This document shows, piece after piece, positions 90 through 57,300 of a DNA stretch of 64,000 nucleotides; positions within the stretch are counted from its first letter, which is position 1, and every line of letters begins with the position of its first letter. The position numbers were made by a program, and so were the translations under genes. Below the pieces are notes generated by a model. The model saw nothing but the letters and a program-made list of their open reading frames with translations, was not told the origin of the DNA and did not search any database. The DNA lies in NCBI RefSeq assembly GCF_036588685.1, contig NC_086381.1, positions 52,328,001-52,392,000 on the forward strand. The letters run 5' to 3'. This DNA comes from Mytilus trossulus (lineage: Eukaryota).

Positions 90-3000
90 GTATTGGAACT
101 TTGAGAGTTTTGATTCAAGTTGGAAACAAGTACACAGAGATTTGGAAACAATCCAGAAACCAAGGCAACAAATGGATTCAGGCTACAGTAGATATTGGTA
201 GAGTAGCCCAACCATTCAGTGTAAGTAAATAGTCCTTAAAATATATCCTTTTAAAAAATGTATGCTGGTTATAAAGTTATCTACACTTGTATGCAAATTT
301 GTTTGCCATTGCATAACATCACAAAAATTCCTGTAAAATTTGAAATAACACAATTTAAAAAATTTGATGTCACAATTAAAAAGTGATTGTTGCTTTACGT
401 CAAAAGGAAATTCTAAGAAGGTCTTAGGTCATTCAAAAACAAAATTCAGATAAATACCAAAAATGTAAATATGTTTATTCCATTGTTATAAGCAAACATA
501 TTTTTACATTTAACATATTATATTTTCCATTATGCTTTGTATTTAGCAATCATGCTGTACCTGAAATAGTAAAAAAAATTATACTTATAGTTGGCATATA
601 TAGATAGCTTTTTTTTTATATTTATAGTTGGCATACAGAGCTAGCATTTTTTGATTTTTTTTATAGTTGGCATATAGAGCTACCAGAACTTTTAATGTGC
701 GTGGAGACATAGCTCTTGATGACGTTCAACTGATGAACTGTAACTTCCCTGCAGTACAGCAATCATGTCTGTCCAATCAGTTCAGGTGTACCAGAGGAGC
801 TTGTGTATCTAAAAATACCCTGTGTGACTTCACTGATGATTGTGGTGACAATAGTGATGAAGGAAATTGTGGTAGGTTATCCCCCTTAGTAAAGATTACC
901 TCCCTTTCTTTACAGTCATGTGACTTCACTGATGACTGTGGTGACAATAGTGACAAAGGAAATTGTGTTAGGTTATCTCCCCTTATTAAAGATTACCTCC
1001 CTTTCTTTACAGTCATGTGACTTCACTGATGACTGTGGTGACAATAGTGACGAAGGAAATTGTGGTAGGTTATCTCCCCTTAGTAAAGATTACCTCCCTT
1101 TCTATACAGTCATGTGACTTCACTGATGACTGTGGTGACAATAGTGACGAAGGAAATTGTGGTAGGTTATCTCCCCTTATTAAAGATTACCTCCCTTTCT
1201 TTACAGTCTTTTTCAGTGCATTTTATAAATAATAAGAAGATGTGATATGAGTGCTAATGATACAACTCCCCATTCAAGTCACAATATATAAACATTTAAC
1301 AATTATAGGTCAAAGTAGACCATGTATATATTGTAGTATCTGTGTCAAGTTTATAAGATTTGACAGTGAAGTAGGTCTTTTTTGGACATGAGTAGGTTAT
1401 TTCCTTTACTTAGGTACAGGCTGGTTTAGTGTTCATATCACATTCTCTATCTTCTTATAGACCATAATAATACATCAAAGCAACAAAAAAACAAAGACAT
1501 CTTGAAATTAATGAATTCAAATTATTTTTTTAATTGCGTTTTCAAATTTTTTAGATTTAGATACATATAGTTAAGTGTTTCTATGTTTGTACTTTAGCTA
1601 AATTTCCTGGAAGATGTGATTTTGAAACCAGTTTGTGTGGGTGGAGTCAAGACACAACTGATACATTTGATTGGATAAGAGCCACTGACCATACAGCTAG
1701 TGGTGGTACTGGACCATCCAGAGATCACACTAAAGGCACTGCTAACGGTAAGATTATTTTGATGAAAAAGACAGTTAACATTTGATGGAAGATTTTTTAT
1801 ACAGATATTTTACAAATGTATCAGTACAGAGTATCATTGAATTTCAATGAGTAACTATGGATTATGTTAACTCGTCATTCTGTATTTACTAAAAGGTTCT
1901 TTTTTTTCCCATAGGATATTACATGTTCATAGAATCATCAAGACCCAGGAAGCCTGGAGATGTAGCAAGAATTGTCAGTCCAACATTAGCCATCAATACA
2001 AACAATCAAAATTCAGTCTGCACAGTAAGTTTTATTTACCTGGGTTCAAATTGATGAGATAAAAAATTGTCAATTTGAATCAAACTGATGCAGTGTTTTA
2101 CTACGAGAGTATATAATAAGACCACTATAAGACCACTAATGCCAGATTAGTCATGTTACAGTTATACTTATTTATGTGTAAATGTGTGGATAAAAGCATA
2201 AACTAGAGTACTGTGGATTCATTAATATTCGTTGGATACCAATTTTGGTGGATTTCGTCGGACATGGAGAACCACGATTTCAAATGTTCAACGAAATACA
2301 AATTTTGTAAAGGAATGAGTGTAGACTTTACCAAAACCACAAAATTAAATATCCAAGAATATGTAAGTTTTCCTCAAACCACGAAAATTTGTACCCACGA
2401 AAATAAATGTATCCACAGTATATATTTTTGTAATAAATTGATAACATATTCATCTACTTTCTCCCTTTTAAGAATTGAATGCTTCTTTTTGTAACTCCAT
2501 TGTGGTGTAAAAGCGTTGACCAAAGTACATTTCCGCACTTCATTCTAAAAATGTGCCCACGTCAACTCTTTTACAACCCTATGAAGTTACAAAAACAGGC
2601 ATTCAATACTTATAATTACATTTTTTAGCTAGGATAATGAAAACACGATTTTTATCAAGTTTATATTTAATTTACCTGTGCACTTTTTGTGGGACATGTG
2701 TTAATGAATGATAAATTTTATTGTGTTATGATGTTCATTAAGGAATAACGCGAGATTGCAGTGTAGCCAATCAGAATAACCTATTGTAATGTAATTATGA
2801 CAATTTGATCAATATTCTTTAGTTAAATTTTAAGAATGAAACTATTTTTAATGGATGAATATCATAATCTAATCAAGGTTTATATTTCTATTTGTACAGA
2901 GTTCACTTTGTTTTTAAAATTAGCCATAATTTTCATTTTATAATTGAGGCAGTCTTAATAAAAAAAAGTGCTGCTCCTTTGCCTTTTCTGTTATTTTTTG

Positions 3001-6000
3001 CTGTGTATTTACTCATTTTATGTCATATATGGGTACTCCATATCATATTCTATCATATAATTATTGTCTCTGATTACAGTTCAGACTATACTACCACATG
3101 TTTGGAAGTGGAATTGGAACGCTGAATGTCTACACCAGAACAGCTGTTGGAGGACCACTTAAAAAGATATGGACCAAGTCTGGAAATGTTGGAGATTTCT
3201 TTGAAAGGAGAGATATACAGATACTTGAAAATAATCCATTCCAGGTTAGATCATTGTGAATTCCAATCACTGTAAATTCAGAAATTATTGTGTACATTTA
3301 TCAATGAGTTTTTTCAAGAAGGACAAAAATGTGAGTTTTAATTATTGTGATTTTTAAAAAATCTGCATACTCTATGTTTCAGTTTTCAGAATGCAAGTTC
3401 TTTTTATTACAATACTCACCCAGTCAACGTATTTGCATTGATTAAAACCTCACAATAATTTCTGAATTTGCAATAGTTCATTTTCATGCATTATCCATAA
3501 CTCAACCTTTGGCTCTTAACTTTTTTTATTCTCTGACTGCTGTAGAAGGTGTTTTTTGTTTCTCAGTTGATCTGTTTATTTGTCAATCCATACATTCCTC
3601 ATCAATATATTCTTGTTTGAAAATCACCAAAGATGTTGAAGAACTGCTGTTGAATGTGCTGAAATTTTCCAAAAATCTTATTTTAAGTACACTGTATTTT
3701 AAAATTTATATATGAACAAACAAGCTGTGTTTCTTTTGTAGATTTTTTTTTATATGACGATGATTTCCTTCTTGTTCATTTCTTTCCATTTTTCAGGTGT
3801 TAGTAGAAGGCGTGGTTGGTAGTAGTTACAAAGGAGATATTGCTATTGATGATTTATCATTCTCTGATGGATGTATGCTAAGTTCAGGTAAATATAGAAA
3901 AATAAAATTGTTTTATTGAAGGTGCAACTATGTAATCGTTCCTCTCAACAACAAAAATTGTGAAAAAATAGTCAACCATTTTTTTGAGTGCACCATTTAA
4001 AATTTTTTGGAAGAATTGTTTTGTATTTGATGATCTAGTTCAAATATTGAAAAACCAAAAATCTTATACAAAGCTGACGAGCTGAAACAACAAAAAGGAC
4101 CAAAATAATACTTCATTTAATGATATAATTATATTTTACAAATAATATGTGAATTCCATCTAATATCAATAAAAATGTGCCAATGAATTTTTTTTGTAAT
4201 CAGAGCTTAAAAGAAACTTTTTTTTTCAAAACTTTTTGTTTCTTTTCATTTCATTGTATTTCTGGATCATTTTAGCAGGTACAATACCAACTGGTACCCC
4301 AGGACCAGCAACCACTCCTAATCCATGTGGAGCTAACAGTACTCAGTGTGTCACTGGAACAAAATGTATACCTAATTTCCAATTGTGTGATTTTACATAC
4401 CAGTGTGCAGACAAATCAGATGAAGCTAACTGTGGTGAGTGGTCTCCCTTTGAATAATACAAATTTTACAATCTTACATTTGAATTACTCCAAAGATGGT
4501 TTACTCCCCCTTACTTATTACAAATAACTGAAAATGACATATCACTTACTCAGAAGATGGTAGTCTCCCCCTTGTTTATAACAAATTACCCAAATTAACA
4601 TTTCAATTACTCAGAAGATTTTCGACCCCCCTGCATATTACAATTAACTGGAAAATTACATTTCACTTACTCGAAAGATTGGTGTCTCCCTCTTGTTTAT
4701 TACAAATTACCCAAAATCGACATAACTCACTCAGAATATGGTTGTTTCACCTCTTTTATTACAAATTACCCAAAATGACATTTCACTAATATATAAAATG
4801 GTTGTCTCACCCTTGTTTACTACAAATTACCCAATATGACATTTCAATAACTCAGACGAGATCAACTGAAGATGTGTGGGTGTACCCCCTTGTTTATGTA
4901 TTTGTAATTGAAGATGGTTGTCTCTCCATGTTCTGTTCCCCTTTCTATCATTTGTGATGATATTTTTTAGAATAGATTTTCTTTAGATAAAACAAAATGT
5001 AATTCTAGTTCAATTTTGTTTTTGAAAAAAGTAAAAACACAAAAATACTGAACTCCGAGGAAAATTCAAAATCAAAAGGCAAAATCAAAAGTCCAAACAC
5101 ATCAAACGAATGGATAACAACTGTCATATTCCTGACTTGGTACATGCATTTTCTAAATGGTGGATTGAACCTGGTTTTATAGCTAGCTAAACCTCTCACT
5201 TGTATGACAGTCCCATCAAATTCCATTAAATTGTCAACGATGCATGAACAAAACAAACATACTCAAAGAATAAAAATGTCAAAAATAGGGGTACAGCAGT
5301 CAATATTGTGTTATCATCTTAATATCACTATAAAAACAACAAATTTGACGAAGAAGCACAAAAAGGCCTACATCAAATTTAACATACTCATTTTGCTTTT
5401 CTTATACGACTTTGAATACATTTCGATATATTTAATTGCACAATGTGTAAGAGATATTGTTGAAAATGTAAGTTAGATATTTTTATGCTTAAGAAATAAA
5501 GTTCATACATTTTAATTTGTATACAGGAACATGTAATTTTGAGAAAAATCAATGTGGCTGGCAAGATTCCAGTACTGGACGTTACAATTGGCATATCTTC
5601 CAAGGTTCTTCTCCAGGAACAGGAGGCCCATCGAGTGATCACACCACAAATAACGCACAAGGTCAGTATGATAGTACATGGTATGCTTAGCTTTTTTTAT
5701 CCTGATTATGCAAATTCTTTTATTTAAGATGGTACATAACAATACAGGGAGATAACTCTGTTAGATTCAACTGAACGTTTTAATGCTTATCTATTGTTAA
5801 GGAAAAAATAAGCTTTTCAGTGATCATTATTTGTGTTTGTCAAACTACTATATAACTAATGAAAATTTTCCAATAAAGTGTATTGGTCAAGTTTATTGAA
5901 ATTTGTATATTTTTTCAAAGCAAATATTTTGTCAAAATTTTATGAAAAAGTAAAGGAATCAAATTAATTTTAGGTGGTACCTAACACTACAGGGAGATTA

Positions 6001-9000
6001 CTCTGTAAAATCAGCTAAATGTTTTAATTACGTTGGTTTGTAAAGGGAATATTAAGCTTCTCAATGATCAAAATTGTTGTTTGTAAAACTGCTATATAAC
6101 CAGTGTAATATTTCTGATAAAACGGTTGGTTTGAAATTTTTGAAATTTTTATATACTTGTTAAAGGGTCAAAGTAAATACTTTGTCAAAATTTTATGAAA
6201 ATTAAACGAGCCAAATTAATTTTAGTGAAAGTGTTGGGTACCACCTTAAGTTGAGGTGTTTAGTATTACCTTAAAAACCTGTAATAGAATAATAAAAAAA
6301 AGCTGAAGTTTATGTAAAGATTTCAAAAGATCAGGAATTTCCTATCAAACAAATTCTGATAGAGTCAGTTTTATAAAGTTATATTTGGAATGTTTAACTT
6401 TCAGGACATTACATGTTGGTGGAGGGTTCTACTGGTACCTTTTTCAGCAGAGCCTACCTGGACACACCTGTATTCCAAGCCACTGCTGCCAGTTGTCATA
6501 TCACATTTTGGTTCAATATGAATGGGGCTTTGGCAGGTAATTGAATTAAAGATTTTACGTTTTAAAATTCTGCGTTTGCTGTAGATGTGATTCTCAATCA
6601 GATACTTTAAAATGCAACATTTTCTGAAATCATTATTATTTGAGTTTTGTATCATGTTTCAACAATCACAAAAATTAATGCACACTAAAATTCTTGAGTT
6701 TACAGTAATTTTAATAACATTAGTCATACACATTACTGTAAATTCAGAAATAATTATTGCTTGCAAATATTATTGCGATTTTGTTATTTTGGACTTGAAC
6801 GCGATTTTAATTTTTGTGATATTGAGAAAAATCATGTTTAATTCATATAAAAAAATTCAAAATGTGAGTTTAAATTAATGCGACTATAACACTGTCAGAT
6901 TTTTCGCAATAATAAAAACCTCACACAAATTTCTGAATTTACAGTATAATGATATTGTTATAGGCAATGTTCAGTTGTATGTCATCAACTCTAATAAACC
7001 TACCCAAAGAACTTTGATCTGGTACAAGACTGGTTCCCAAGGCATTGGATGGAAGAATGCCTCAGCAGACATTGGTCAACTTTCAGCAGGTTACAAGGTT
7101 AGTTTTATGGGTGAAAGTTCACCAGTCTGAAAATGAGGCTGTACATTGTTGATGCACACTATATGTATAAATTCATTTTTTAGATTTAATTATAAAACAA
7201 TAAATTCATGTATAAATTTCAAACTCTTATTGTTTATCTTAATTATATTGTCAGCACTAGGTTTTTGCATGTAAAAATTATTTGATTTTTTAAAGTTTTG
7301 AAACCAATGTGATAGTATTGTTTATTTATAGATAAAGACAATTTAAAGGCATAATGTATTAAGTTTAATTGCTTTCTTGTAATTGAATATAGTTTTTATA
7401 CCTGAACATATTTTTGTTTTACAGCTAAGATTCCAAGCCTTCCCTAACAAAGGCTTTGGTTCCTTGTCGAAGGTACCTAATGCAGATATAGCAATTGATG
7501 ATGTCAAATTTGTAGACTGTAGTCCCACACAAATCTTCACGGATAAAAGTAAGAAAAAACATAATATGTAAACATGTTACTGTTCAGAGAAAATACATAT
7601 GCTGCAAAAGTATTTATAAAACTTATGGAAAGATGAACAATGGGGTAAATGATAGTGAGACAGAAATCCAACAACACAGGTTAATAAAAGAAACCTCTAG
7701 AGATCAACAGACATCCCATCAAGGTCAATTGAAGTATAGACAAAAAATAACACCACTTTTCCAGCTGTGCATAATTATAAATTCAGAGTCTTATAAAGCT
7801 AGAAATAATTTTATGAGAACTTTCCATTTTATTTTTAATTTTATTCATCTATATTAAATTCAAAAGGAATGAAAAGCAATTGAAAAAAAGGACAAGCACT
7901 TACATAGATCCTAACTTTAGACAAGCTCTTTAACATACATGAAGGTTACATAGTTTTACAGGTATAAAAAAAGAAGATGTGGTATGATTGCAATGAGACA
8001 ACTCTCCACAAGAGACTAAATGACACAGAAATGAACAACTATAGGTCAGCGTACTGCCTTCTAAAATGAGGAAAGCTCATACCACATGGTCAGGAACTCT
8101 ACTTCCAAATATGGATATAGTTTTATTTTAGTGGTTTAGAATTCCTCCTGATTTTCTAAAGTACTTTTAAGTGTAACTGTTGATTGACATTACACAGACA
8201 TTGTTATTTATTTAGATATCTAGTCATATCTATTTAATTGATTTTCAATTTTTCATATTGTCTTTTTATTCGCCTTTTCAGAATCTAAAGGACTATGGGT
8301 AATCTCATTGTTCGTACACCAAAATGAAAAAAGGGTTATGTCATTGGTTGAATTTCAATTGTTTAGAACGTTTGTCAACAATCACAACCTTTTGGTGAAC
8401 GCTTTTGAAATTATTACCCAGAATGCATTAGATTCAAAAACGGCGAATTCCATAGTGTAAAAATAGTTCTATATCTCCTGCTGAAAATTAACTGCTGAAA
8501 TATTTGTTTTGTAGCTGTGAACTGTACATTTGAATCTGATTTCTGTGGATATTTCCAAGATACAAAGGATGATTTTGATTGGACTAGAACTAATCAAGCT
8601 TCACCAACCAGAGGGACGGGTCCAGATAGAGATCACACAACTGGAACAGGTGAAATCAGGATAATGCATGCATCTTAACTTGTCCTGGAGGAGGGTGGGA
8701 CAGGGCCTCCTAGGCCAAGTGGTCTAAGTAGTTCTACTTCTGTAATCACTAGCCAGTCAAAACTGAGGTTGTGAATTTGAGGAGGTGTCCAGATTCCGAA
8801 GTCCCAGGCTTTAAAACACGAAATCCTGAAGTCCTAGATTTAAATAATTAAAATCCTGACATCCGGAAATTCTAAAAAGAATTCCGGTATCCTGAAAAGG
8901 TCAATCTTGAAATCCTGAGCTTAAAATCCCAGAGTCTCAATAAACGTCCTAACCCCCCCTCCTCAATCAATCAATCTTAATTTGTCAATCTTATAAATGT

Positions 9001-12000
9001 TCAAATCTAAAATTGGTTTTCTTCTTCAATATGAAAGTTTATTTTCATTTTTTTCAATGAAACAGTTTAAACATGTTTTATTATTCAAAATGACAAATGG
9101 ATTCAACACAAGTTTTTAACGTAGTCCTCTAATATTTCTATGGGATGTGATATGAAGATGGTTCCATAATTAATTCCATTTTTAAATACAGAAGTATCTT
9201 TTTAACTGCAGCCTTGTTGCACTGTAATAGAGAAAATTGTCCTGAAAGTTTAAGTTGAAATGGCATTTATTTTCCACACTACGATATGTATTAAGTGCAG
9301 TATGCTTTCTGTTGGCCATTTATATTTGTGGTATTCAAATAAGCCAAATTACAAAAATTGATTAGCTTGTAGTATCAATTATTTTATTTTGGTGCATTAC
9401 TCAGTGTATATACTTTCTGAGATCTTACGTTATTTGTTGGTTGAAACATTTTTTTTATATTTAGGATATTATATCTATATTGAGACTTCCTCACCAAGAC
9501 ATCAGGGTGATCGAGCTGTATTATCTACTGGTATCCAGCAACCTGAAGCAAACGGTGTATGTTTAACATTCTGGTATCACATGTTCGGTGCCCATGTCAA
9601 CACGCTGAATGTCTACCAACAAACTACTGACGGAAACAAGTCAATGATCTGGACCACATCTAAAACACAAGGAAATGTATGGAGAAAAGCCACCAGGACG
9701 GTTACCAGTCAAACACCATTTAAGGTTTGTATGCTTAATAGTACACACAAAATAGAGGTCAATCTTAATAGTACACACTAAATGGAGGTCAATCTTAATA
9801 GTACACACTAAATGGAGGTCAATCTTAATATTATACACTAAATAGAGGTCAATCTTAATAGTACACACTAAGTAGAGGTCAATGTTAATAGTACACACTA
9901 AATAGAGGTCAATCTTAATGCTACACACTAAATAGAGGTCAATCTTAATAGTATACACTAAATAAAGGTCAATGTTAATAGTATACACTAAATAGAGGTC
10001 AATCTTAATGGTACACACTAAATAGAGGTCAATCTTAATAGTACACACAAAATAGAGGTCAATGTTAATAGTACACACTAAATGGGGGTCAATCTTAATA
10101 GTACACACAAAATAGAGGTCAATCTTAATAGTACACACTAAATGGGGGTCAATCTTAATAGTACACACTAAGTAGAAGTCAATCTTAATAGTACACACTA
10201 AATAGAGGTCAATCTTAATAATACACACTAAAAAGAGGTCAATGTTAATAGTACACACTAAATAGAGGTCAATTTCAATAGTATACATTAAATAGAGGTC
10301 AATCTTAATAGTACACACTAAGTAAAGGTCAATGTTAATAGTACACACTAAATAGAGGTCAATCTTATTAGTATACACTAAATGGAGGTCAATCTTAATA
10401 GTACACACTAAATGGGGGTCAATCTTAATAGTACACACAAAATAGAGGTCAATCTTAATAGTACACACTAAATGGGGGTCAATCTTAATAGTACACACTA
10501 AGTAGAAGTCAATCTTAATAGTACACACTAAATAGAGGCCAATCTTAATAATACACACTAAAAAGAGGTCAATGTTAATAGTACACACTAAATAGAGGTC
10601 AATTTCAATAGTATACATTAAATAGAGGTCAATCTTAATAGTACACACTAAGTAAAGGTCAATGTTAATAGTACACACTAAATAGAGGTCAATCTTAATA
10701 GTATACACTAAATGGAGGTCAATCTTAATAGTACACACTAAGTAGAGGTCAATGTAAATAGTATACACGAAATAGAGGTCAATGTTGATAGTACACACTA
10801 AATAGAGGTCAATCTTAATAGTACACACTAAATAGAGGTCAATCTTAATAGTACACACTAAGTAGAGGTCAATGTAAATAGTATACACTAAATAGAGGTC
10901 AATCTGAATAGTACACACTAAAGAGAGGCCAATTTCAATAGTACACACTAAATAGAGGTCAATCTTAATAGTACACACTAAATAGAGGTCAATCAACTAA
11001 CACTTAATTACATTCATACAAAACTGCAAAATTTAATATGAAGCATTGATTCGTGTTTCAATTCTTTTGGGATAAGTATTTTTTTCAAATTCATGTAAGA
11101 CAGAAGAAAAAACACTTTATGCCATATTCATCTTTACATTACATATCTTATTTTTGGTCTTGTGTATGTAAGTTTACATGATGACTTTGTAATTACAGTA
11201 ACCTGTCTACTTTACATATCTTATATTTGGTCTTGTGTATGTAACTTTACATGATGACTTTGTAATTACAGTAACCTGTCTACTTTACATATCTTATATT
11301 TGGTCTTGTGTATGTAAGTTTCCATGATGACTTTGTAATTACAGTAACCTGTCTACTTTACATATCTTATATCTTATATTTGAAATTGATGACTATGTAG
11401 CTATATCATCACTTTTTTTTACAGATCCTGTTTGAAGGTGTTGTAGGTCTTAGTTGGCAAGGAGACATAGCTCTGGACGATATCAGCATGGTTAATGACC
11501 AGTGTCCACCAACAAGTAATTAAAAGTTCTAAAGACCCATTATTGAATTGTATAACTCAAATTTGCTAGTTTTGATAAATTGAGATATCATATGAAAAAA
11601 AATAATTCCAAGATATTTTTATCCTCATGCATGATGATGCTGTATGGTCAGGCGAATTAAGTTTCACCCTGGTTAATTTCATACATCCTGAAATTGGTTT
11701 CTGTTCTGTAAATAAACCCATCATATATACTAGGACTAAATTTAGTATACGCCAGAAGCGCGTTTCATCTACAAAAGACTCATCAGTGACGCTCGAATCC
11801 AAAAAGGTTAAAAAGGCCAAATAAAATACGAAGTTGAAGAGCATTGAGGACCAAAATTCCTAAAAGTTTTGCCAAATAAAGCTAAGGTAATCTATGCCTG
11901 AGGTAGAAAAGCCTTAGTATTTCAAAAAATTCTAAAATTTGTAATTAGTCAATTTATAAATATAACAATATCAATGACAATTCATGTCAGCACAAAAAAA

Positions 12001-43200: not shown

Positions 43201-46200
43201 CCTTGTTACATATTCTAAAAATTGCCTGTTAATACATGTATTGAGATTTTTTACAAATTATTATATTTCTCATTTCTAGAACCATACCAGCCAATAAGCC
43301 ATCAATACTGTGGACGAGATACCTTCTATTGTAAACCTGTCAATCAGTGTTATCCCAACGCATGGAAGTGTGATTTTGTCAACGATTGTCCAGATGGAAG
43401 CGATGAGTTTGGCTGTCCTACAACACCTGCACCAACAGGTTTAAAACTCATTCTTATTTATCAAAAAAATAATTATATCAATGCAGTAATGTTACATAGA
43501 TATAGGAAGATGTGGTGTGAGTGCCAATGAGACAACTCTCCATCCAAATAACAATTTAAAAAGTAAACCATTATAGGTTAAAGTACGGCCTTCAACACAG
43601 AGCCTTGGCTCACACCGAACAACAAGCTATAGAGGGCCCCAAAATAACTAGTGTAAAACCATTCAAAGGGGAAAACCAACGGTCTAATCTATATAGACAA
43701 ACGAGAAACGAGAAACACGTTTATATTACATAAATGTTCATATATGTTCATATTTGATCTGTGTCAATTTATTAATGAAATGCAAATGACTTCATTCATA
43801 AAACCAAATAACAATCACAATGTGTTGTATGTGTAAATATAGTTTTACTTCCTATTTTCAACAGAAAAAACATAGCAAATTGCTGGTCAAAAGAATCTAT
43901 ATATACACATTCACAGATAAAGTATCAAGGATAAACTCAAAATACTGATTACTTAAAACATAGTGATGTCCTTTTAAGAGTGGGTCTCATTAGGGTCTAA
44001 GCGTGACATGGGATTGTCAATTTTTTGTAAGCGTGACACGTGAAAGTCATATCATTGTGTCATGAAAATGGGAAATGAGGTCTTACGGGACCCAGGAAAT
44101 GACAAAAAAATGAAAATTGCTTACATATATAGTGAAAGCGGGATACAGGAATCTGACAAAACAGTAAGTGGGATCCGGGATCGGAACCCCCCAATGAGAC
44201 CCCCTTAAGAGTGACTCTGTTGCTGAGTGGTTGAAGTAGTTCATCTGTGATCACTAGCCTGCCAAAACTGTGGTGGTAAGGTCATAGAGTTCATTGATTA
44301 CTAGTGTGGTACCATAGGAAAGAAATCATTATTTTTGTGATCACAAAACATATCAATGTCAATATGCTTACAATTTAAGTGTTAAAATTTCATTGATGTA
44401 ATATATGTTTTTTTGAAAGATAATAGAAGATGTGGTATAAGTGCCAATGAGACAACTCTCTTGTCCAAGTCATAATTTGTAAAAGTAAACCATTATAGGT
44501 CAAAGAAGTCTTCACAGTCTTCAACATGCATTGAATTATTTTACAGGTTCAACACTGAAGCCAGGAACTCCCTTAGTACCCAAAACCTTACCTACACCAG
44601 GAACAACAAAGAAACCTATGTCAACAGTGGCACCGACACTAACATGTAAAAAGACAGAAATGGCATGTGGATCTGGAGAGTGTATTGCTAGACTTTACAT
44701 GTGTGATGGAGTTAGTGACTGTAAAGATGGATCAGACGAACCAGCTAGTTGTAGTAAGTATTTATGGAATAACAGAGGGTCATAATAGGAATACCTTCAT
44801 TAAGAATAGTAGTAAAAAATCTTACCAAATGACGTTAATAATATATCTTTTGGTGTATGATGATTAAATGTACACTTTCTTCCAGACAATAAAAAATCAA
44901 CTTATTTTGATAAACATAATTATTTGAGAGATCTCACAATAAGAATGTTTAATCACAGTAAAACAATAAAATTTTAACCAGTTTGACCTAACCTTAGCCA
45001 AAAATGACCATTTGACTACTAACAGTAATGGGCATTCCTAACCACATTATAGTTCTGTTGTTGAAGAAATGCCGCCATCAGTTATAGATTTGACGGTCAC
45101 AAATGTAGTTTTACTGGAGACTGGTAGCATGTTGCTCTAGAATAGAATATCTATATCTAACAATTACTATGCATTCTGAATTTGGAAAAAATTCTCTTTT
45201 TTTCTGTCACATTACTTTTTCATGTATGTTCAGCATTATTTTTTTCAGTTTTTTTATCTGACTTACTTGACTTAACCACCTCGTCCCATGGCGGTCATAG
45301 GGCAACCACAGATTTATTATATAAAAACTAGATATTCTTCTTTTTTTGTTGTTATGTTTTGCAAATTACATTATGTTTTGTGTTTTTTCTTCAGTAAAAT
45401 GTCATGCTGGTTACTATTGGTGTAACAAACAAAGACGATGTATCAATGCTCCACGATGTGATTCTGTCAACAATTGTGGAGATTACACAGACGAGAGTTT
45501 ATGTGGACTGCCTGGACAAGGTACTATAACATTTAAAACTAAAATCAACAACATTCAATATTCCAAAAGACATTTTCAAAGTAGTTAATTTAACAGAATG
45601 TATTGATTTACACCAATCAAATATTTTTTTTATTAGAATTTTAGTCACAAAATATAGGGGTGCTTTATAGTTATTGGTTGTGTGACATCAACTGTGGAAT
45701 ATTTATGATATTATTCCAAACAAGACGCATTATCACAATTTGTGTCCCCTTGTTAGCCATAACAAATGTTATCGTAAAAATGTGATGACATAACAGAAAA
45801 AATATCTGATGCAACAGTGCAAAAATAATAATTATGTGATATCAACAGTTTAGATGTCACAAAATCTCAGGACAAGTGTTCAGATTTCAAAATAGGGATA
45901 TGGTCTATGCTCAAGTTGACCTTAAAAAAATGATATATGTTGCTTCTAAGCAAGAAAATATAGGACAGCAAGCACCAGGTCAAAAATGAAAATATGATAA
46001 AATAACAAATAGTCCATTATACACCACACAGGAACATTAAATAAAATATTATTATACAGTCCAACTTGGATTAGTGAAAGACAAGAAATCAAATCCTTTG
46101 TATGGGAGGAGAAGATTTAGATTTAATTTTGTTTTTGATAAAATTCTTCTGACAGATTTTCTGATGAGATATGATTGTATTGTTATAAGATTTAATCATT

Positions 46201-49200
46201 TATATAAAAATTGAATGCTACTTTTTGTTAATTTATTAGGGTGTAAAAGCGTTGACTGAAGTACATTTTGTATGAAGCGCAGAAGGACAAGTGATTTTAT
46301 TCAGTTTAATTTAATTCACCTGCGCACTTTATTGTGGGTCCTCGTGTCATCATGCATGATAAATTTTATTGTCTTATGAAATTGCTTACGGAATTACATG
46401 TGATGTGCAGTCAGCCAATCAGAATAACCTATTATAATGAAACATACATCTAATGTAATTATTTACAGGAGGAAGTTGTCCTCAGGGTTTCTGTAAAAAC
46501 TTTGGAACCTGTACAGCTAGTAAAACAAATGGAGCTTCTTGCAAGTGAGTAACTAACAATGAATTGATGTGGATTTACTTGGTACAATTTTCCATCTGAA
46601 TTTTTTAACTGTATAATGTCATTTCGACAAAAATTGTGAGTGAATATAAAGGAATGGACGAACATATGGTGTACTTAAAAAACTTACTGTCTATTACTAT
46701 GTTGACATTTTGAAAATAGAGATCAGCAACGGAAAATATGAATCATGCAATACAATATAATCATTCCTTTTATAATGTTATACCAGAAAAAAGATATGTT
46801 TATCGATTTCAATTTCATCTTTGTTATCATTACTTTAATAGTAACCTCTAAATTTTGAACATTAAAGTTACATTGAACAATATATTAGATTAAATAATTT
46901 TTTTTTGGACCAGATGAGCTGTATGAAAGCCGCCATTTTTTATCTGACATTATTTTCTATTTTTATTATTTATTACAGTTGTTCATCTAGTACTTTTGGA
47001 GATAGATGTCAGTACCAATTTGGAGCACAAAGTAACCCAGCTCCTCCCAAGAAAAATAGTATGTTATAAGTTTTGAAATAGTATACTTTAACACATCCTG
47101 TACCTTTAGGCTCATTTGTTTTCATTTCAAAAGTCTGTGGATTCATCATCATTCCTTGGATACCAATATTGGTTCATCTGTCACCGTAAAAAACTAGCGT
47201 CAATTATACACGCCTTTATGAAGTCATTTACCAGATAGAGGGGATTGCCTGTATCCCTGCACTATTAACGTTCATCAAGCACCTTAATGATCGTCATTGT
47301 GCATGATAAACTAGAAAGAATGGTTGTTCTGTAGGTACTTAATGACAATTGCCTAATGACAGCAGTGCTGATTGTCATTTTTGAGTATTCAATTTGCCGA
47401 ATAATTCGTACAATATAGAATTATGTTTTCCAACCACTCGCTCAACATTGGAATGGTAGTGACAACGCCCCTAAACGCACAAATGACGTTCACTAAAACC
47501 AGAGTTTTTGATAAATAAACCACAAAACTACACAATCAAATTTCTGCAAAAAATTGTACCCTGGAAAACCAATAAATCCACAGTACATGAACTTGCTGTC
47601 TCTTTTGTGTGCTGTATATCATAAAACAGAGAATTTTACCTATTCTTTTCACACATTAGAAAAAACTGGATTATTTTATGAATTACCACACATTTATACG
47701 CCCTCAAAAATATATATTCATTCGTGACAGAGAAAATGTTAATCACAAATTACAGGAATTTTACTTTAACATTATTTAGCCTATTCATTTACCTGACAAA
47801 CAATAAGATCTTTCAATCACTTTGTAAATGTTTTTTTTACTATTAAAAAGTGGTTAAAACTGAAGAAATTAATGTAGTATTTTCATAGGGAAAGTCATCC
47901 TAAACATGCATGAATTATGTGCAATTAGACATGAATCTTACAACCATCAATCCATATAGAAAGTATTGACCAGATAGTATCATCTTACGTTGCCTTCATT
48001 CTTCTGGTTAAAATTCTAAAATTGCCTCAAGTGATTATTTTATATGATTATGAGTATGATGTTGACTTATTGTAACATTGCTAACCTTATATTGGTGTTT
48101 CAGATGGAACAGCAATAGGAGTGGGAGTTACGGTAGCAGTACTAGCAATCGTTGGTTTAGTGGTTGGTGCATATTTCTTTACAAAGAAACGCAGAGAAAA
48201 GTATGTATATTAGGACTCTTCTGTAAAAACAATTTAGGAATGACTGTAGTATTTTTTCTGTCTATGAAGAAATAACATAAAAAAAATTGGTGCGCACTGA
48301 ATAACATGTAGCGGGTTGTTCAACAGTGTGTACTACATTTTTTATGTTATTTCAAATAGACAGAAAAAATATTACAGTCATTTCTTATAATTTAATTCTA
48401 AATTCCATTTTAATCTGTAGAAAACCATAAAAAATCGTTGATGACGTCACCGTTACATGATTAAATTATGTCTATGGGCTGATAACAAAACAACGTCAGC
48501 CAATCAAAAGACATGTTACATCCAAAATTAAATTATTCAGAAATATCAAAGTTCTCATGTCTTTACTGCACCAAATACTAAGTTGTAATAACTATTCTAA
48601 ATAGAGGAGGTTTCTAAAAAGTTTAAACTTTTAAGTAGATTTATTTTTTATGAAAGGTAAATAAATTTTAAATTGCCAATAAATTAAAATTTCTGCACAC
48701 TTAGGAATTTTATTTTACAATTGGTTTCACTTATTTATTATTATTTTTTTATGTCTGATGAATTTTTCATGGGGTAAAAGATAAAAAAAACTCCCCGAAA
48801 AACTTTTCCAAGGATATTTTCAAAATATCAATGATCTGGATTGTCTTAACTAAGTAATGATTTATTTTTTAGGCAATTTTCTGAACGTCTAGGATTCGGA
48901 CTATCTAACCCAAGTTATGATGGCGATGGTGATGGAAAAGATGTAAGTAATTCATAGGCATATTTACACTTCAATGCAAATTTTCTGACTTTAATTAACG
49001 AAAAAAAGTTTTTGCAACATTCTAAATCACAATTTTAAAACTTGGCTCCATAATTAAAAAGTGATTGTTGCATAATGAGACAACTCTAGGGCAGGGCTTC
49101 CAAAAAATATTTGAGCCATACAGAAATTTTATATCTGATCCCGATTTAATCCCTTAAGACTTAGTCACAAAAGGCAATTATGGTTATCATTTGGCTATTC

Positions 49201-49925
49201 CAATGATTGACATTATATTAAAAAAAAACGATTTTAAACTTCACTTTGATATGAATTTGATGTTCTGATGTAAACTGTTAAATTGGCAGTGCATCATTCA
49301 AATTGTGCACATAATCCTAAGTGGGTGATAACTTTTCAGGAATTATAAAATCCAAAATCAGTCGGTATAATATGAAAATGGACTATTATGAAAACTTTTA
49401 TTTTGCATTTTTAACAACTTGTTTTTTATCCTTTCAGTTCACAATGAATGAAATGGACTCACCATTCTCAGATGTAAGTACATGTTCTTGTATTTTGTTT
49501 ATTAATTATTTAAATCAGTTGATATCAGAAAGTATTACTTCAATGAATTTACTGTTGTTATATTTTATTTGAAATTTTAGCATTGTATCAATATTCATCT
49601 GAATGTATTTATTTGGATATCTTAATTTTATGTCATATTAAATAAAGAAGATGTTGTATGACAGCCAATGAGACTACTCTCCACAAAAGACCAAATGACC
49701 TAGAAGGTATCAACCATTGGTCACTGTAAGATGGCATTTATTTTTTTGCACGTCTTCCTAATTATTTTTATATTTGAAATTCTTGAAAGGCTCAATTAAG
49801 GCCATAAAAGATATCAAATAAATAATATTTGTTGTTATAACTTCAATAATAATGTTATTTTTTGTTTTTTATTTCAGAAAACTGATGGAACCTCAATAGA
49901 CAATCCACTCTACCAAGACCTTTAA
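90..49925 (+). CDS. MALRD1: Giant MAM and LDL-receptor class A domain-containing type I membrane protein (MALRD1/apical endosomal glycoprotein-like), 5'-partial, 48 exons in window
   Basis: Hand-spliced GT-AG exons with consistent phases: 90-220, 667-871, 1598-1747, 1915-2024, 3080-3244, 3797-3887, 4279-4434, 5527-5661, 6405-6536, 6964-7097, 7425-7548, 8515-8649, 9465-9724, 11425-11515, 12393-12533, 13019-13284, 13517-13871, 14438-14568, 15041-15173, 16222-16374, 16684-16842, 18157-18284, 18814-18904, 20249-20395, 21055-21311, 22030-22261, 22767-33221, 33860-34482, 35151-35319, 36517-36614, 36753-36935, 37386-37482, 38112-38264, 38678-38827, 39137-39475, 39855-39983, 40271-40414, 40954-41099, 42405-42609, 43280-43438, 44547-44753, 45395-45520, 46469-46544, 46979-47058, 48104-48200, 48873-48942, 49438-49473, 49878-49925. 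Total 18,002 nt (~6,000 codons). MAM motifs (CxFExxxCxW...TGPxxDHT...GxYxYIE...FWYHMYG...GDIAIDD) and LDLa motifs (FxC...C...CDxxxDCGDxSDExxC). The symbol denotes family-level similarity; orthology was not tested. Confidence 0.93.
585..683 (+). repeat. Three tandem copies (37-39 bp) of the exon-2 splice acceptor junction
   Basis: ttatag|ttggcata recurs with the AG ending at 590, 627 and 666. Confidence 0.85.
822..1208 (+). repeat. Four tandem copies (96-97 bp) of the exon-2 3' end plus donor site
   Basis: Unit tcatgtgacttcactgatgactgtggtgacaatagtgacgaaggaaattgtg|gtaggttatctccccttattaaagattacctccctttctttacag; extra units start at 916, 1013 and 1110. Confidence 0.95.
2209..2420. mobile_element. 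MITE with TACTGTGGAT...ATCCACAGTA ends (TA-flanked)
   Basis: TIRs visible; related copies at 15199-15391, 22292-22500, 36170-36341, ~40820-40907 (partial) and 47135-47585 (interrupted). Confidence 0.8.
2494..2792 (+). repeat. Dispersed repeat (gtgtaaaagcgttgac...gccaatcagaataacctatt)
   Basis: Second copy at ~46210-46460. Confidence 0.7.
4435..4930 (+). repeat. Degenerate ~60-bp tandem repeat (~8 copies) starting at the exon-7 donor
   Basis: Recurrent aagatggtNgtctcccccttgtttattacaaattacccaaaatgacatttcaNttactcag at ~60-bp spacing. Confidence 0.85.
5030..5400 (+). repeat. Dispersed repeat family B (aaaatactgaactccgaggaaaattcaaa...gctagctaaacctctcact)
   Basis: Other copies at 41127-41320 (+), 52300-52480 plus 53170-53230 (-, interrupted) and ~53985-54035 (-). 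Confidence 0.8.
5724..6274. mobile_element. TTAA-flanked MITE (Kolobok-like termini): intact copy 5973-6245 nested in an older copy of the same family
   Basis: TIR ggtggtacctaacact...agtgttgggtaccacc followed by ttaa; a degenerate homologous copy starts at 5724 and its terminus resumes at ~6250-6274. Confidence 0.72.
6734..6946. mobile_element. MITE with TACTGTAAATTCAGAAAT...ATTTCTGAATTTACAGTA ends
   Basis: TIRs visible; related copies at ~3269-3470, ~21715-21907 and ~17995-18064 (partial). Confidence 0.8.
9734..10995. repeat. 30-bp minisatellite, ~42 copies
   Basis: Consensus aatagaggtcaatcttaatagtacacacta in exact 30-bp register; diagnostic variants recur 330 bp apart. Confidence 0.98.
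11138..11380. repeat. 73-bp tandem repeat, ~3.2 copies
   Basis: acatatcttatatttggtcttgtgtatgtaagtttacatgatgactttgtaattacagtaacctgtctacttt at 11141, 11214, 11287 and partial at 11360. Confidence 0.95.
11711..11998 (+). repeat. Dispersed repeat (ataaacccatcata...gactcatcagtgacgctcgaatcc...agaaaagcctta)
   Basis: Internally deleted relative at ~21528-21660. Confidence 0.65.
15199..15391. mobile_element. TACTGTGGAT-family MITE copy
   Basis: tactgtggattcatttattttc...aataatgaatccacagta. Confidence 0.78.
15854..16099. mobile_element. Foldback MITE with ~60-bp TIRs (CTTACAGCTAATTTCCTAA...)
   Basis: Left arm cttacagctaatttcctaatgcatgtaaagcaaaactttagttggcttgcttgc is near-complementary to the right arm ending agctgtaag. 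Confidence 0.85.
18845..19073 (+). repeat. 116-bp tandem duplication of the exon-23 3' end plus donor
   Basis: atatggctttagaYgatatatcaatgaatgacggaccRtgtccaccatcaa|gtaagtcttctataaatagtctgcattct occurs twice; donors at 18905 and 19021. Confidence 0.95.
19932..20086. mobile_element. Palindromic 155-bp MITE
   Basis: taacagtactgtagttgaagagttgccacc...ggtggcaactcttcaactacagtactgtta, a 30-bp perfect TIR; half copy at ~45048-45125. Confidence 0.88.
20506..20850 (+). repeat. Dispersed repeat family C (aattgagaaaggaaatggggaatgtgtcaaa...cagctggcccctaaacaaatatatactagttcagtg)
   Basis: A closely similar reverse-complement copy lies at 42908-43095. Confidence 0.85.
21912..22045 (+). repeat. Three tandem 46-bp copies of the exon-26 acceptor junction
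   Basis: tgtattt..ag|gttgcgtttgaagct with the AG ending at 21937 (degenerate), 21983 and 22029. Confidence 0.88.
22292..22500. mobile_element. TACTGTGGAT-family MITE copy
   Basis: tactgtggattcgtttattttcg...aatattgaatccacagt. Confidence 0.78.
22767..33221 (+). CDS. MALRD1-like giant internal exon (10,455 bp, phase 1-1; ~17 complete MAM plus ~11 LDLa domains)
   Basis: Acceptor ctctttcag|GA at 22766/22767 and donor TGTG|gtgagt at 33221/33222; contains the 3451-aa ORF 22880..33235, whose Met start is internal to a MAM domain. Confidence 0.95.
33860..45520 (+). CDS. MALRD1-like exons 28-42 (four MAM/LDLa pairs, Pro/Thr-rich linker, further LDLa domains)
   Basis: Spliced translations such as [11 protein letters not shown]...[47 protein letters not shown] and [14 protein letters not shown]. 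Confidence 0.88.
35484..36116. mobile_element. Non-autonomous TIR element nested in another MITE
   Basis: aacgtgacggtacccaaattgcaccta...taggtgcaatttgggtatccttacgtt interrupts a copy (35358-36160) of the element seen intact at ~8268-8450; diverged inverted copy at ~58385-58805. Confidence 0.72.
39702..39832. repeat. 63-bp tandem duplication just upstream of the exon-36 acceptor
   Basis: atgctaattagNaaggtcatggNtagattYaactgattYYatattccaaYggNtggtttaatt occurs twice. Confidence 0.85.
41487..41654. repeat. GC-richer dispersed repeat with ggatttcgg sub-repeats
   Basis: gaggggggatagga...tcctatcccccctc ends; related inverted copy at ~8780-8963. Confidence 0.7.
42908..43095 (-). repeat. Family C copy, inverted
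   Basis: Reverse complement of ~20506-20685. Confidence 0.85.
43500..43732 (+). repeat. Dispersed repeat family A (aagatgtggtatgagtgccaatgagacaactctcca...)
   Basis: About 10 copies in the window: ~1232, 7970, 40492, 43500, 44426, 49643 and 50798 (+); 50240-50505, 51588-51690 and 57955-58050 (-). Confidence 0.85.
43981..44204. mobile_element. MITE with GGGTCTCATT TIRs
   Basis: gggtctcattaggg...ccccaatgagacccc; inverted copy at 53543-53766. ORFs 44060..44254 and 53553..53750 are similar only because of this repeat. Confidence 0.85.
46469..47058 (+). CDS. EGF-like domain exons (46469-46544, 46979-47058)
   Basis: Spliced peptide [37 protein letters not shown] has the six-Cys EGF pattern with CxC and GxRC. 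Confidence 0.85.
48104..48200 (+). CDS. Transmembrane exon of the MALRD1-like protein
   Basis: [25 protein letters not shown] followed by the basic stop-transfer segment TKKRREK; flanked by cag and gtatgt. Confidence 0.9.
48873..49925 (+). CDS. Cytoplasmic tail exons (48873-48942, 49438-49473, 49878-49925) with two NPxY motifs
   Basis: [23 protein letters not shown]|[12 protein letters not shown]|[15 protein letters not shown]; TAA at 49923-49925. Confidence 0.85.
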
Positions 49926-50082
49926 AAACTATGATAAAACAATACAACCGTGATAGCATTTACATTAAGTGCCATGTTATAATACTCAATGATTTGTGAT
50001 AGTGCAATAATATATTACTCCTTTTGTGCAATATTTTGTTACTTCTAAAATTTGTTATTAGAATCACATGTTATTTTATGAA

Positions 50083-50088
50083 AATAAA
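50083..50088 (+). terminator. Candidate polyadenylation signal (AATAAA) of the MALRD1-like gene
   Basis: AATAAA ~160 nt after the stop with T-rich sequence downstream; chance hits are common in this AT-rich background. Confidence 0.35.
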
Positions 50089-53542: not shown

Positions 53543-53766
53543 GGGGGTCTCATTGGGGGGTTCCGATCCCGGATCCCGCTTACGGTTTTGTCCGATTCCC
53601 GGATCCCGCTTACACTATGTAAGTAAGCAATTTTCATTTTTTGGTCATTTCCCGGGTCCCTCAAGGCCTCATTTCCCGTTTTCACGACACAATAAAATGA
53701 CTTTCACGTGTCACGCTTACAAAAAATCGGCAATCCTGCGTCACGCTTAGACCCCAATGAGACCCA
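53543..53766. mobile_element. GGGTCTCATT-family MITE copy
   Basis: Reverse complement of 43981-44204. Confidence 0.85.
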
Positions 53767-54206
53767 CCTCATAGCAATTTCTCTATTCTCAAAACAGACC
53801 CGTAGTATTTCATATTAATAATCATCTGTGATGTTTTTGACAAACAAGAAATAATTTCAAGACCATGCCATATTAATTTTGAATGTTTTTATCATAGATT
53901 GCTAAAATATTATTTTAAAAATCACAGGTCCTTGGAATTTGAGGTCTGTTATAAAAACAGTATAAATCAAACATTCTTTTAATGGACTTTTCGAATTGAT
54001 TTTCCTCTGAGTTCAGTATTTTTGTGATTTTACTTTTTAAAAGCATTCAATATTTTTTAAATTTTAGTCTCATTCTTAACAGTAAACCATAACCTATGAC
54101 AATTATTATATTATTCTAACCCAATAAAACAAGTAATCTCTCCCAAAAAAAATGCAATTGTAACAACCCACAAGTTTGAGCAATTTATAATGATATTGAA
54201 TGGATT

Positions 54207-54385
54207 TCATTTCATAAATAAAACCTTCATTAGTCCACCCCTATATGATGATAATTCATTTTTTAACTTAAATATCAAATACAAAAATATAATGATTGAA
54301 AATGTTCCTAGAATAAAAAATGTTGTCTGTAAGTCATACTGTTTGGCTATGTAACTGAATGGTAATCCTGCCAGGAAAATGCCAA
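54207..54385 (-). CDS. SLC37A4: SLC37A4-like terminal coding exon
   Basis: ttttcag|TT GGC ATT TTC CTG GCA GGA TTA CCA TTC (GIFLAGLPF) open to TGA at 54209-54207. Confidence 0.88.
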
Positions 54386-57300
54386 CTGAAAAAGAAAATT
54401 ATTTGTTAGAAAAGTAACTCAATGTAATTCATACTGCCAGGAAAATGCCAACTGAAAAAGAAAATTATTTGTTACAAAAGTAACTCAATGTTATACTGCC
54501 AGGAAAATGCCAACTGAAAAAGAAAATTATCTGCTAAAAATGTAATATATACTAGCAGGAAAAATGCAAAATTGTCAAATTAATTTCATCTTAGATGTAT
54601 CATCTAAGTTCATTGGATGGTTATAAATACTTATTTCCATGCTTTGATAACCTAGATTTTTGCATTTGAATATTCTGACATGATTTTAATACATATAAAT
54701 CAAAAGCTTCTCTGTTGTTACTTGTGTGGAAAATTTTCAAGAATGATGTAGGGTATAGACAACTGCCTTGTAGCTATAGTCCTTCAAAAACTTATAAGGT
54801 TTACAAATAATAAAATTTTATGCATTCAGGTATACTCTATACATCCTTTGCTTTCAAATGTTTGATTTTGACCATTCCTCATGAAGATAAATCCAGAAAA
54901 TAGTTTGCAGAACGATACTATTATAAGATGCTTATATTGAAAGATGATGTTATAAAATCCTGTTGACAAATATTATAGGGTTAAATGCAGGGCTTCCAAA
55001 ATTTTTCTGAGCCAGCCGGACAGTTTATATCTGATCCGAATTTTAATTCCTAAGACAAAGTCACAAAAGGCAATTATGGTAATCAGATGGCCATCCCAAT
55101 GATTGACATTAAATTAAAATCGATATTAAACTTTAATTTGATATGAATTTTATGTTCTGACATAAACTGTTAAAATTGGCATTGCATCATTCAAAGTGTG
55201 CACATCAGCGTGCTCATATCTGCATTAGACTCTTTATTTGTGCAAAATGAAGTTGTCTAGAACTTTATTTTCGTTTTTAAAGTCACATTTTTCAAAACCG
55301 GATGTTGACTTGACAATCAAGAAGACTAGTGTTCCTCATACACAACGCACAATATCAACTGGTGATGAAAGACCAAGCAAAGAAAAAGGCTGCCTGAGAA
55401 TGGGGGCAAGGATGGGAGGACAGCAATGTAAAATTTTTAAACAAAACATTTTAAAAATTTATTCGAGTTAATACTAAACTTAACAGTATAATCCTTCTTA
55501 TTAAATCTTAAGAGTTTCAGTTCATAAATATTCTGTGAATTAAATATAAATAGTTGCAAAAACATCATCTTACTATTTGTTCTCATAATACACAGCGAAT
55601 AATTTAGTGTTAAATTAACTTTAAAGATATAAAGGAGAATTTTAAAGGGCAAAGACCAAAATCTTTTTCTTTTTATTTCATCTGGTTAATTATCTAAAAA
55701 GTGAATATGTAACCTAATCTGTAAATGTTATCATATTAAATATCGATTAGTAACCAAAAATAATAAACAAAATAAATAAAGTAATAAAAAAATTAATAAT
55801 AAAATATATGAAAAATAACTGTTAAAAGTAAAATCAAAATTTTTCCTTTAATTGCATCAGAGACATATAATACATATATTGTATTATATGTCTCTGATTG
55901 CATGTTAAAAGTATTAAACTGTAAACTTCCCATGTAAAATTCAAAATAAAACCTCCTTTGTAAAAACACATAAAGACTTAAAAAAAAAATTGTAAATATA
56001 GTGTATATATAATGTTGTTGTTTTACGATTGTTAATTTATTCTTCATGTATATATTATTTTTTATTTTCTTTGGTGGTGGAACTGTTCGACATACAGAAG
56101 TATGGTTACCCTACAAAGGGTGTAAAGATCCAGAGAAGAAGACAATGGTAAAACATGGACCATAAACGGATACGTAAAATCCGTGTACGTTAACATAGAA
56201 CTACTGAGCGAAGAAGCTCTTTCCACGTTATTTCTTCAACAAAATACTTGAAATGAACGTTAGATACAGGTATCAATGATACTTTTAGCATTTTTGAAGA
56301 AATGTAGGATGCATAATTGAATTTCCTACCTGTGCACATGCGCACACGTGTTCTTGTTCATACAATGTAGTTCTGACGATTTTTCATTTAAAACCTTTTT
56401 AAATGATTTATCAAATCATGTTAATAAATGTATTTATTATATATTTTAAATCAATTAGATACAAGCTGCTGAAATGTACAAAAATAATTGGGAATGGACC
56501 GATTAATTTATACGATGTCCGGTACTGAAAATAGTTTACCTGTCACCTGAACAGGTAGTTTTCAGCTGTCCAACAACTAATTAGCCTTGATTAAAATTAG
56601 AAAGTATTGAAGTAGGGGTTGTTTTGATAGTAATTAATCATCATGTCACTTTTATGACCGGAAATGTATGGCTGTTAAAAGCAAAATGTTGGGTCAAAAA
56701 CATCGTGAATTTATATGTTAAAATGACCGAAAAAGCCTTTGAAACTAAAAAGTAGATGACCGTTTCATGCTTGCCCAGCCGGTCTTTTACCGGACATTAT
56801 ACAAATGACCGGCATATATGACCGTTTTGGAAGCCTTGGTTAAATGCCTTTTTAAAGGAATTTATTGGTGTATAAACTCAACCAATTCACTCACAAACAA
56901 ATAAAAGTCTGAAGGACTTTGATGATATGTTTGTGAATGACTTGGTCCAGTTTATACACCAATAAATTCCTTTAAAAAGGAGTTTAATCCTTATAAATTT
57001 TAAAATTAGAGACAGGGAATATTCTTTCCCACAGTTGTTAACTCTATCACACATATTTCATTGAATAGGCCTGGCGCATGAATATATTTGTTGGTTTACG
57101 CAAAAATATGTACTTAATGGCAATCTGATAAAAAATAAACTGCAAAAATAGTTATTATCATTCCAACGAATGTTTTTGTGTTTTATTATTCTATTAAACG
57201 ATTAACGTGCAGTTAAAATAAATTTGATTGACGCCAGTGTTATTATCACTGCAATCTTGTTTACATTGGTTGCGAAAAGAAGTTCGGTCAACATCATCTA

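Follow-up and report, generated by a model that had tools for sequence, protein, structure and literature searches.

Duplications that carry an exon edge and its splice signal into the adjoining intron are already known and have been named in amphioxus (lancelet), where they form the 'mirage' type of minisatellite. According to two reports (PMC3087553; PMC3902484), amphioxus mirages occur in Adh3, in the globins BflGb6 and BflGb9, in troponin C and in PGBD5; they are tandem copies across the 5' or 3' exon-intron boundary with units of 10-160 bp, many but not all copies keep AG or GT, and normal mRNA or splicing was reported. Their mechanism of origin was called unclear there, and intron gain was proposed as a possible outcome. 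Intron 7 of human F7 contains a 37-bp VNTR whose first unit lies across the exon-intron boundary, and that report describes the most upstream donor as used and the downstream pseudo-donors as functional yet silent (PMC1557585). Duplications that cross an intron-exon boundary and copy splice signals were described for a potato RdRp gene, in which a new intron resulted (PMC4974935), and for human segmental-duplication paralogues, in which splicing was altered (PMC2812944). A literature search, with most subscription papers outside it, found neither a mollusc mirage nor a genome-wide enrichment test, and the accessible portions of two further papers, on Mytilus lysozymes (PMC3448621) and on human splicing-associated repeats (PMC10078293), had no bearing on the question.

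We analysed a window of 64,000 nucleotides from Mytilus trossulus (contig NC_086381.1) with 102 splice junctions and a median intron length of 629 bp. It contains five tandem duplications that copy an exon edge and its splice signal into the intron, in 2-4 copies with units of 37-116 bp, four of them in a gene with MAM and LDL-receptor class A (LDLa) domains and one in an SLC37A4-like gene. The MAM/LDLa gene (MALRD-like; 90..49926, plus strand) has 48 exons within the window and its 5' end beyond it; the joined exons give 6000 codons with one stop, at the end, exon 27 holds 18 MAM and 11 LDLa stretches (Pfam), and its named homologues in a protein search are MAM and LDL-receptor class A proteins, the best named at 41-46%. 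The last four exons of the second gene lie on the minus strand (54207..60301; exons 60216-60301, 59457-59570, 57601-57739 and 54207-54385) and are open up to the stop when joined. We take it to be an SLC37A4-like transporter gene, a provisional name that follows an earlier note on this DNA; Pfam searches exon by exon yielded no more than a weak Sugar_tr match (E 0.012). Both gene models stay open when read via the exon-adjacent splice site. All five duplications were found at the places given in the earlier note, and its exon numbering agrees with the 48-exon model.

At the exon-2 acceptor (578..682, plus strand), three copies of 37-39 bp place an AG before 591, 628 and 667, the last being the used site and the others decoys, and the spare copies match the used one at 71% and 76% identity. 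The exon-2 donor (823..1208, plus strand) is repeated in four units of 96, 97, 97 and 96 bp (93-95% identical), with donor positions after 871, 967, 1064 and 1161; 871 is the used site, and 1064 and 1161 are decoys with GT. The earlier note had a copied splice site in each of these four copies, and the copies are there, but the second (967) is mutated and reads TT instead of GT. One diagnostic base alternates G/T/G/T across the four 97-mers, a pattern that fits, as far as sequence can tell, a doubling of a two-unit block. The exon-23 donor (18842..19073, plus strand) is present in two copies of 116 bp that are 90% identical (used site 18904; decoy 19020, with GT), and the exon-26 acceptor (21917..22044, plus strand) in three copies of 46 bp, of which the one at 22030 is used and those at 21938 and 21984 are decoys with AG, the spares being 78% and 88% identical to the used copy. 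The last acceptor of the SLC37A4-like gene (54351..54563, minus strand) occurs three times in units of 62-66 bp, with 54385 as the used site and AG-bearing decoys at 54451 and 54513; the spares are 89% and 96% identical, and a degenerate fourth copy at 54558 is without AG.

In structure these arrays resemble the amphioxus mirages: all five consist of head-to-tail units across an exon-intron boundary, nine of the ten clear spare copies keep their AG or GT, and the unit lengths overlap. They differ in belonging to another animal lineage, in their low copy numbers (2-4), and in the presence, elsewhere in the window, of purely intronic arrays close beside exons. F7 is a single locus and concerns a donor only, whereas three of the five arrays here copy acceptors, with the last copy used in the model; unlike in the potato gene and the human paralogues, no new exon or intron appears in the models. 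Among the 94 intron-flanking junctions of the MAM/LDLa gene, four have copies in their own intron that match at 21-23 of 24 positions, the control maxima for those four being 15-18. The copies have diverged from each other, as the earlier note had held, with identities of 71-96%. Each continues from exon edge into neighbouring intron as genomic DNA does, colinear and without exon-exon joins, and on this ground an RNA-templated origin from spliced mRNA was rejected.

Five further arrays with long units lie entirely within introns of the plus-strand gene. A 61-bp array (4439..4860) abuts the exon-7 donor (4434), a 30-bp minisatellite with 42 units (9734..10994) begins 9 bp past the exon-13 donor, a 73-bp array with 3.3 units (11135..11372) ends 52 bp short of the exon-14 acceptor, a 63-bp duplication with two units (39704..39832) ends 22 bp short of the exon-36 acceptor, and an array of 33-34-bp units composed of a pyrimidine tract and CAG (42241..42354) lies 50-88 bp upstream of the exon-39 acceptor; their junction distances are 41, 9, 52, 22 and 88 bp. 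The 61-bp array is old, and its start (4439) is common to runs of two other organism labels (X2, piece 4245-4534; X8, piece 4245-4788); sparse coverage of the 30-mer array in the same runs is uninformative, as are the joint tables of contigs from four runs, which were matched at 85% likeness and swamped by transposon matches. Alignments by eye had suggested that the 30-, 34- and 61-mer arrays are decayed mirages, a reading set aside after control scoring. The likeness of the 30-mer array to its exon edge is at or near the control level, and so are the scores of the 34-mer array, which is no nearer in sequence to its own acceptor than to other acceptors of the MAM/LDLa gene; the far end of the 61-mer array shows a weak likeness to the end of exon 7 (1.3% of controls), and 4 other donors of 47 score at least as high. 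Breakpoints carry no single signature, with about 0-1 shared bases for the 97- and 116-bp units, about 3 for the 63-bp unit and a long partial copy for the 73-bp unit.

All ten non-transposon arrays with units of at least 30 bp lie within 100 bp of a junction (3.59 expected, P 3e-5; 4.24 expected and P 2e-4 after masking of dispersed repeats), and so do all nine in the MAM/LDLa gene alone; these P values are optimistic, because the window was selected for the pattern, and the cut-offs (unit of at least 30 bp; 60 and 100 bp) were chosen after looking, with n=10. The mask, built by self-comparison alone, comprises 24% of the non-exonic DNA and probably leaves some transposons unmasked. The purely intronic arrays are all within 100 bp (5/5, 1.36 expected). 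Strict straddling of a junction applies to five of the ten, with P between 0.006 and 0.1 depending on the null. Arrays with units below 30 bp show no excess, with none of nine straddling a junction and two of nine within 100 bp (2.47 expected). The earlier note's statement that non-transposon repeats are nearly all at exon edges therefore holds for long units and fails for shorter ones, and the comparison with a length-matched null that it proposed, run in the window only, bears out the proximity of long units and, less strongly, straddling. A TRF-independent scan revealed four additional segments, namely 5718-6109 and 37795-37898 (at 56 and 213 bp, respectively, from a junction), 61246-61658 and 63553-63617. 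They were omitted from the statistics, and our reading is that they are transposon-internal or simple repeats. Nine metagenome loci with only distantly related MAM homologues (30-41% identity) gave only two arrays with units of at least 20 bp in TRF and thus no comparison.

We think it probable that the five arrays are mirage-type minisatellites, likely neutral by-products and probably with a positional bias to exon edges. Duplications of 37-116 bp likely arise by ordinary slippage or staggered-break repair, taking in exon edge and splice site, and the arrays likely grow stepwise through unequal exchange. They are likely tolerated because splicing would keep to the site beside the intact exon: a boundary-crossing duplication always leaves one complete exon, with the spares ending up intronic, as the open gene models show, and spare sites would afterwards decay as other intron DNA does. 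That long units are in excess beside exon edges, whether they include a splice site or not, most likely stems from biased placement of new duplications, a bias that would follow the chromatin or transcription boundary between exon and intron instead of the splice signal. The earlier note had considered a mutational process focused on splice sites; a process aimed at them as such does not appear to be needed, because the five purely intronic arrays are equally near exons.

The same clustering might have resulted from survival, which we regard as unlikely: arrays would originate evenly along introns but persist in exon-flanking DNA, since transposon insertions and deletions would keep replacing intron interiors, while deletions next to an exon would damage splice signals and the DNA there would thus be shielded. 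Dispersed repeats indeed occupy 23-25% of intron sequence at 100-400 bp from a junction and 2% of it in the nearest 25 bp, and the age of the array at 4439 suits such persistence. However, the six youngest long-unit arrays (87-96% match) are as near exons as the old ones, all within 60 bp of a junction (1.87 expected), and the excess persists after masking of dispersed repeats. It is also quite unlikely that chance, combined with the selection of a window reported for looking extreme, accounts for the pattern. With so many junctions and introns of this length many arrays would be near exons anyway, as 46% of random placements in the MAM/LDLa gene are (4.16 of 9 expected), and straddling within this gene is not significant (4/9, P 0.055; 0.098 after repeat masking); but proximity (10/10 and 9/9) gives P 3e-5 to 2e-3 under every null tried, and the TRF-independent scan found no long-unit array between the two genes.

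That the spare copies are functional poison or alternative splice sites, whose regulated use would lead to NMD or truncated proteins, was the earlier note's other suggestion, and we consider it very improbable. In its favour are the retained AG and GT, the stop to which every intact decoy leads, and the potato and human cases. But neither stops nor signal retention exceed chance: a random intronic insertion of matching length stays in frame and free of stops in only 2-14% of cases, so that 86-98% give a stop and the stops lend no support, and the nine retained signals compare with about 7.7 expected from squared identities, so that neither purging nor preservation seems evident. Most decoy stops had been identified correctly (TGA 652, TAG 18979, TGA 22038, TAA 54493 and TGA 54431), except that the 96-bp length of the first exon-2 donor unit puts TGA 921-923 out of frame, and TGA 1018-1020 is the first stop in frame. 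Decoys of the SLC37A4-like gene lead to stops in its last exon, a position that is not expected to trigger junction-dependent NMD. The silent pseudo-donors of F7 also speak against functional decoys, as does run X19, whose contig over exon 2, the only RNA-like one there, is a single block (667-870, without differences) with both ends at genuine sites; this contig shows no use of decoys at exon 2, although contigs, as opposed to raw reads, drop rare isoforms. Another contig of this run joins 13282 directly to 13515, and the run thus holds spliced sequence, its RNA nature being guessed; the parallel to normal splicing in amphioxus extends only to exon 2, with two of the five arrays, and to contigs of one run. 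Assembly stutter as the source of the copies is extremely improbable, since they differ by 4-29% with patterned variants, and contigs derived from reads of run X1, which may be the window's own source, span 400-885 with the triple acceptor (1 mismatch, 1 gap) and 4407-5045 with the 61-bp array (no difference). What could be said for it is that no listed contig piece spans the 97-bp or 116-bp arrays, short-read contigs breaking inside repeats, and that the arrays at 22 kb and 54 kb lay outside the stretch compared.

Tentatively, and with more doubt than confidence, we suggest that in this animal, perhaps in many marine invertebrates, duplications of 30-120 bp favour the roughly 100 bp around exon edges, splice site included or not, and that mirages are the visible subset of a genome-wide mutation bias guided by gene structure; if so, this bias would keep feeding spare splice sites to introns. 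The arrays are natural tests of spliceosome choice among near-identical sites, and traps for gene prediction. The intron gain or sliding that the earlier note likened them to is absent from the gene models, which are open without a new intron, and from the single-block exon-2 piece; a 52-nt cassette that could be formed from the 97-bp copies would, judged from its sequence, contain an in-frame stop. A possible sixth, decayed mirage occurs at the exon-20 donor (16347..16430, plus strand; two copies of 42 bp), where the copy is 65% identical and has lost its GT, and its score, singled out post hoc among about 100 junctions, was equalled or exceeded in 0.13% of control windows.

The five tandem duplications across splice junctions reported in the earlier note (the exon-2 acceptor in three copies, exon-2 donor in four, exon-23 donor in two, exon-26 acceptor in three and the last acceptor of the SLC37A4-like gene in three) were all recovered by TRF, and the repeat unit of each comprises an exon edge together with the adjoining intron end, as had been described. 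The arrays are real, and their structure is of a kind already known, since boundary-spanning tandem repeats, named mirages, occur in the globin genes and Adh3 of amphioxus (PMC3087553), and further in PGBD5 and troponin C (PMC3902484). The amphioxus report gives units of 10-160 bp, AG/GT retained in many and normal splicing; it calls the origin unclear and puts forward intron gain as a possible outcome (PMC3087553). The mussel arrays resemble amphioxus mirages in being boundary-spanning tandem copies, many with AG/GT kept. Neither a mollusc mirage case nor a genome-wide enrichment test was found in the literature searched, which lay mostly outside subscription papers.

The window consists of animal DNA rich in A and T (GC 32%). 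Its large forward-strand gene (90-49926) has 48 exons, all with AG/GT ends, which join into 6000 codons with a sole, terminal stop; its named homologues belong to the MAM and LDL-receptor class A proteins. The reverse-strand gene, tentatively called SLC37A4-like after the name given in the earlier note, has four exons between 60301 and 54207 that are open to the stop when joined, and its transporter match is weak and on one exon. At 4 of the 94 intron-flanking junctions of the large gene, 21-23 of 24 bases are matched within the junction's own intron (control maxima for these four, 15-18), and three further junctions exceed their own control maximum by just one base. One of the three, the exon-20 donor (16347-16430), may be a decayed sixth case, a likely 42-bp duplication whose copy has lost its GT.

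Assembly stutter, the false addition of repeat copies, had been disfavored on the grounds of copy divergence, and this argument holds: it is unlikely because the copies within arrays differ by 4-29% and because the four 97-bp units of the exon-2 donor array (823-1208) carry an alternating marker (G/T/G/T at one intron base). The triple exon-2 acceptor and an intronic 61-bp array (4439-4860), the only two arrays covered among those checked, are present in read-derived contigs of sequencing run X1, which may itself be the source of the window. Between the functional exon copy of the 97-mers and the spare copies there are differences at two synonymous Asp codons (GAT versus GAC), one of which falls at a CpG.

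TRF yielded 20 merged arrays, 11 of them with units of at least 30 bp, including a 500-bp transposon-like repeat at 62-63 kb. Under a null in which each array was collapsed to one unit and placed randomly, wholly exonic positions being excluded, five of the ten long-unit arrays other than the 500-mer straddle a junction where 1.37 would be expected (P 0.006), and all ten lie within 100 bp of one, against an expectation of 3.59 (P 3e-5); with the 500-mer the counts are 5/11 (P 0.024) and 10/11 (P 5e-4), and in the large gene alone 4/9 (P 0.055) and 9/9 (P 9e-4). When dispersed repeats identified by self-comparison were masked, the P values became 0.019 (5/10) and 2e-4 (10/10) for the ten arrays and 0.098 (4/9) and 0.002 (9/9) for the large gene. 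All P values are post hoc, for a window selected for the pattern. The claim that repeats gather at exon edges thus stands for units of at least 30 bp and fails for the nine short-unit arrays, none of which straddles a junction and two of which lie within 100 bp (2.47 expected); likewise, proximity to exons exceeds the length-matched null that had been proposed, whereas straddling is weaker (P 0.006-0.098). A TRF-independent scan recovered the ten long-unit arrays again plus four extra segments, excluded from the statistics, two of which sit in the large gene, their distances to a junction being 56 and 213 bp. Exon proximity is thus a firmer signal than splice-site capture: against an expectation of 1.36, all five junction-free long-unit arrays lie within 100 bp (P 0.0015), and against one of 1.87, all of the six youngest lie within 60 bp (P 8e-4). 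The candidate positional bias, seen here in one selected window, is the remaining point of interest.

The arrays consist of colinear tandem copies with one intact exon, intronic spares and graded divergence, and their breakpoints are mixed in type. Such copies probably originated by slippage or staggered-break repair and grew stepwise by unequal exchange, with a candidate origin bias at the exon/intron boundary, where base composition shifts sharply (GC falls from 41% in exons to 27% at intron edges and is 31% in intron interiors). The main rival to an origin bias is survivorship, a bias in which arrays persist rather than in where they arise; it fits the avoidance of exon flanks by dispersed repeats, but the youngest arrays are no farther from exons than the oldest. 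The spare sites are probably silent because the exon-adjacent site is preferred, as in F7, where the exon-adjacent donor is chosen and the spare donors are silent (PMC1557585).

Contigs of run X19, taken as RNA by guess only and prone to lose rare isoforms, bear on this point. One joins 13282 directly to 13515 and leaves a gap of 233 nt at the place of exons 14 and 15 (232 nt); X19 therefore contains spliced sequence. For the exon-2 arrays only, its exon-2 piece is 667-870 with zero differences, and its ends are the genuine acceptor and donor. The premature stops attributed to the decoys are reached from every intact one, but chance suffices, as random insertions of intron sequence with the same lengths are expected to be in frame and stop-free in just 2-14% of cases. 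Two details required correction: the exon-2 donor copies are not all intact, the second reading TT, and TGA 921-923 lies in another frame, so that the first stop in frame comes at 1018-1020. AG/GT is kept in nine of ten clear spare copies, versus about 7.7 predicted by our own arithmetic from squared copy identities. Stops in the last exon are not expected to trigger junction-dependent NMD, and the decoy stops of the SLC37A4-like gene would lie there; its decoys would therefore truncate the protein, with NMD not expected. Most likely, the duplications are neutral.

Exon 27 of the large gene (22767-33221, forward strand) is a single exon of 10,455 bp and 3484 codons with 18 MAM and 11 LDL-receptor-A stretches, whereas the remaining 47 exons measure 36-623 bp. 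Several unnamed homologues (44-97% identity) are about 3,400-3,540 aa long, and these similar lengths suggest that the giant exon may be conserved. Before exon 7, a TAG-CAG tandem acceptor (4274-4279) keeps the frame at either position. In introns within 221-49877, small dispersed repeats occupy about one quarter of the interiors but just 2% of the 25 bp next to each junction. The intronic 30-bp array shows, by eye, an apparent 330-bp higher-order duplication of 11 units at 10141-10680. Upstream of the last modelled exon of the SLC37A4-like gene, several copies of a unit of about 500 bp lie in both orientations together with a simple repeat of GACGACG (60649-64000) and probably represent a transposon with internal tandem units.
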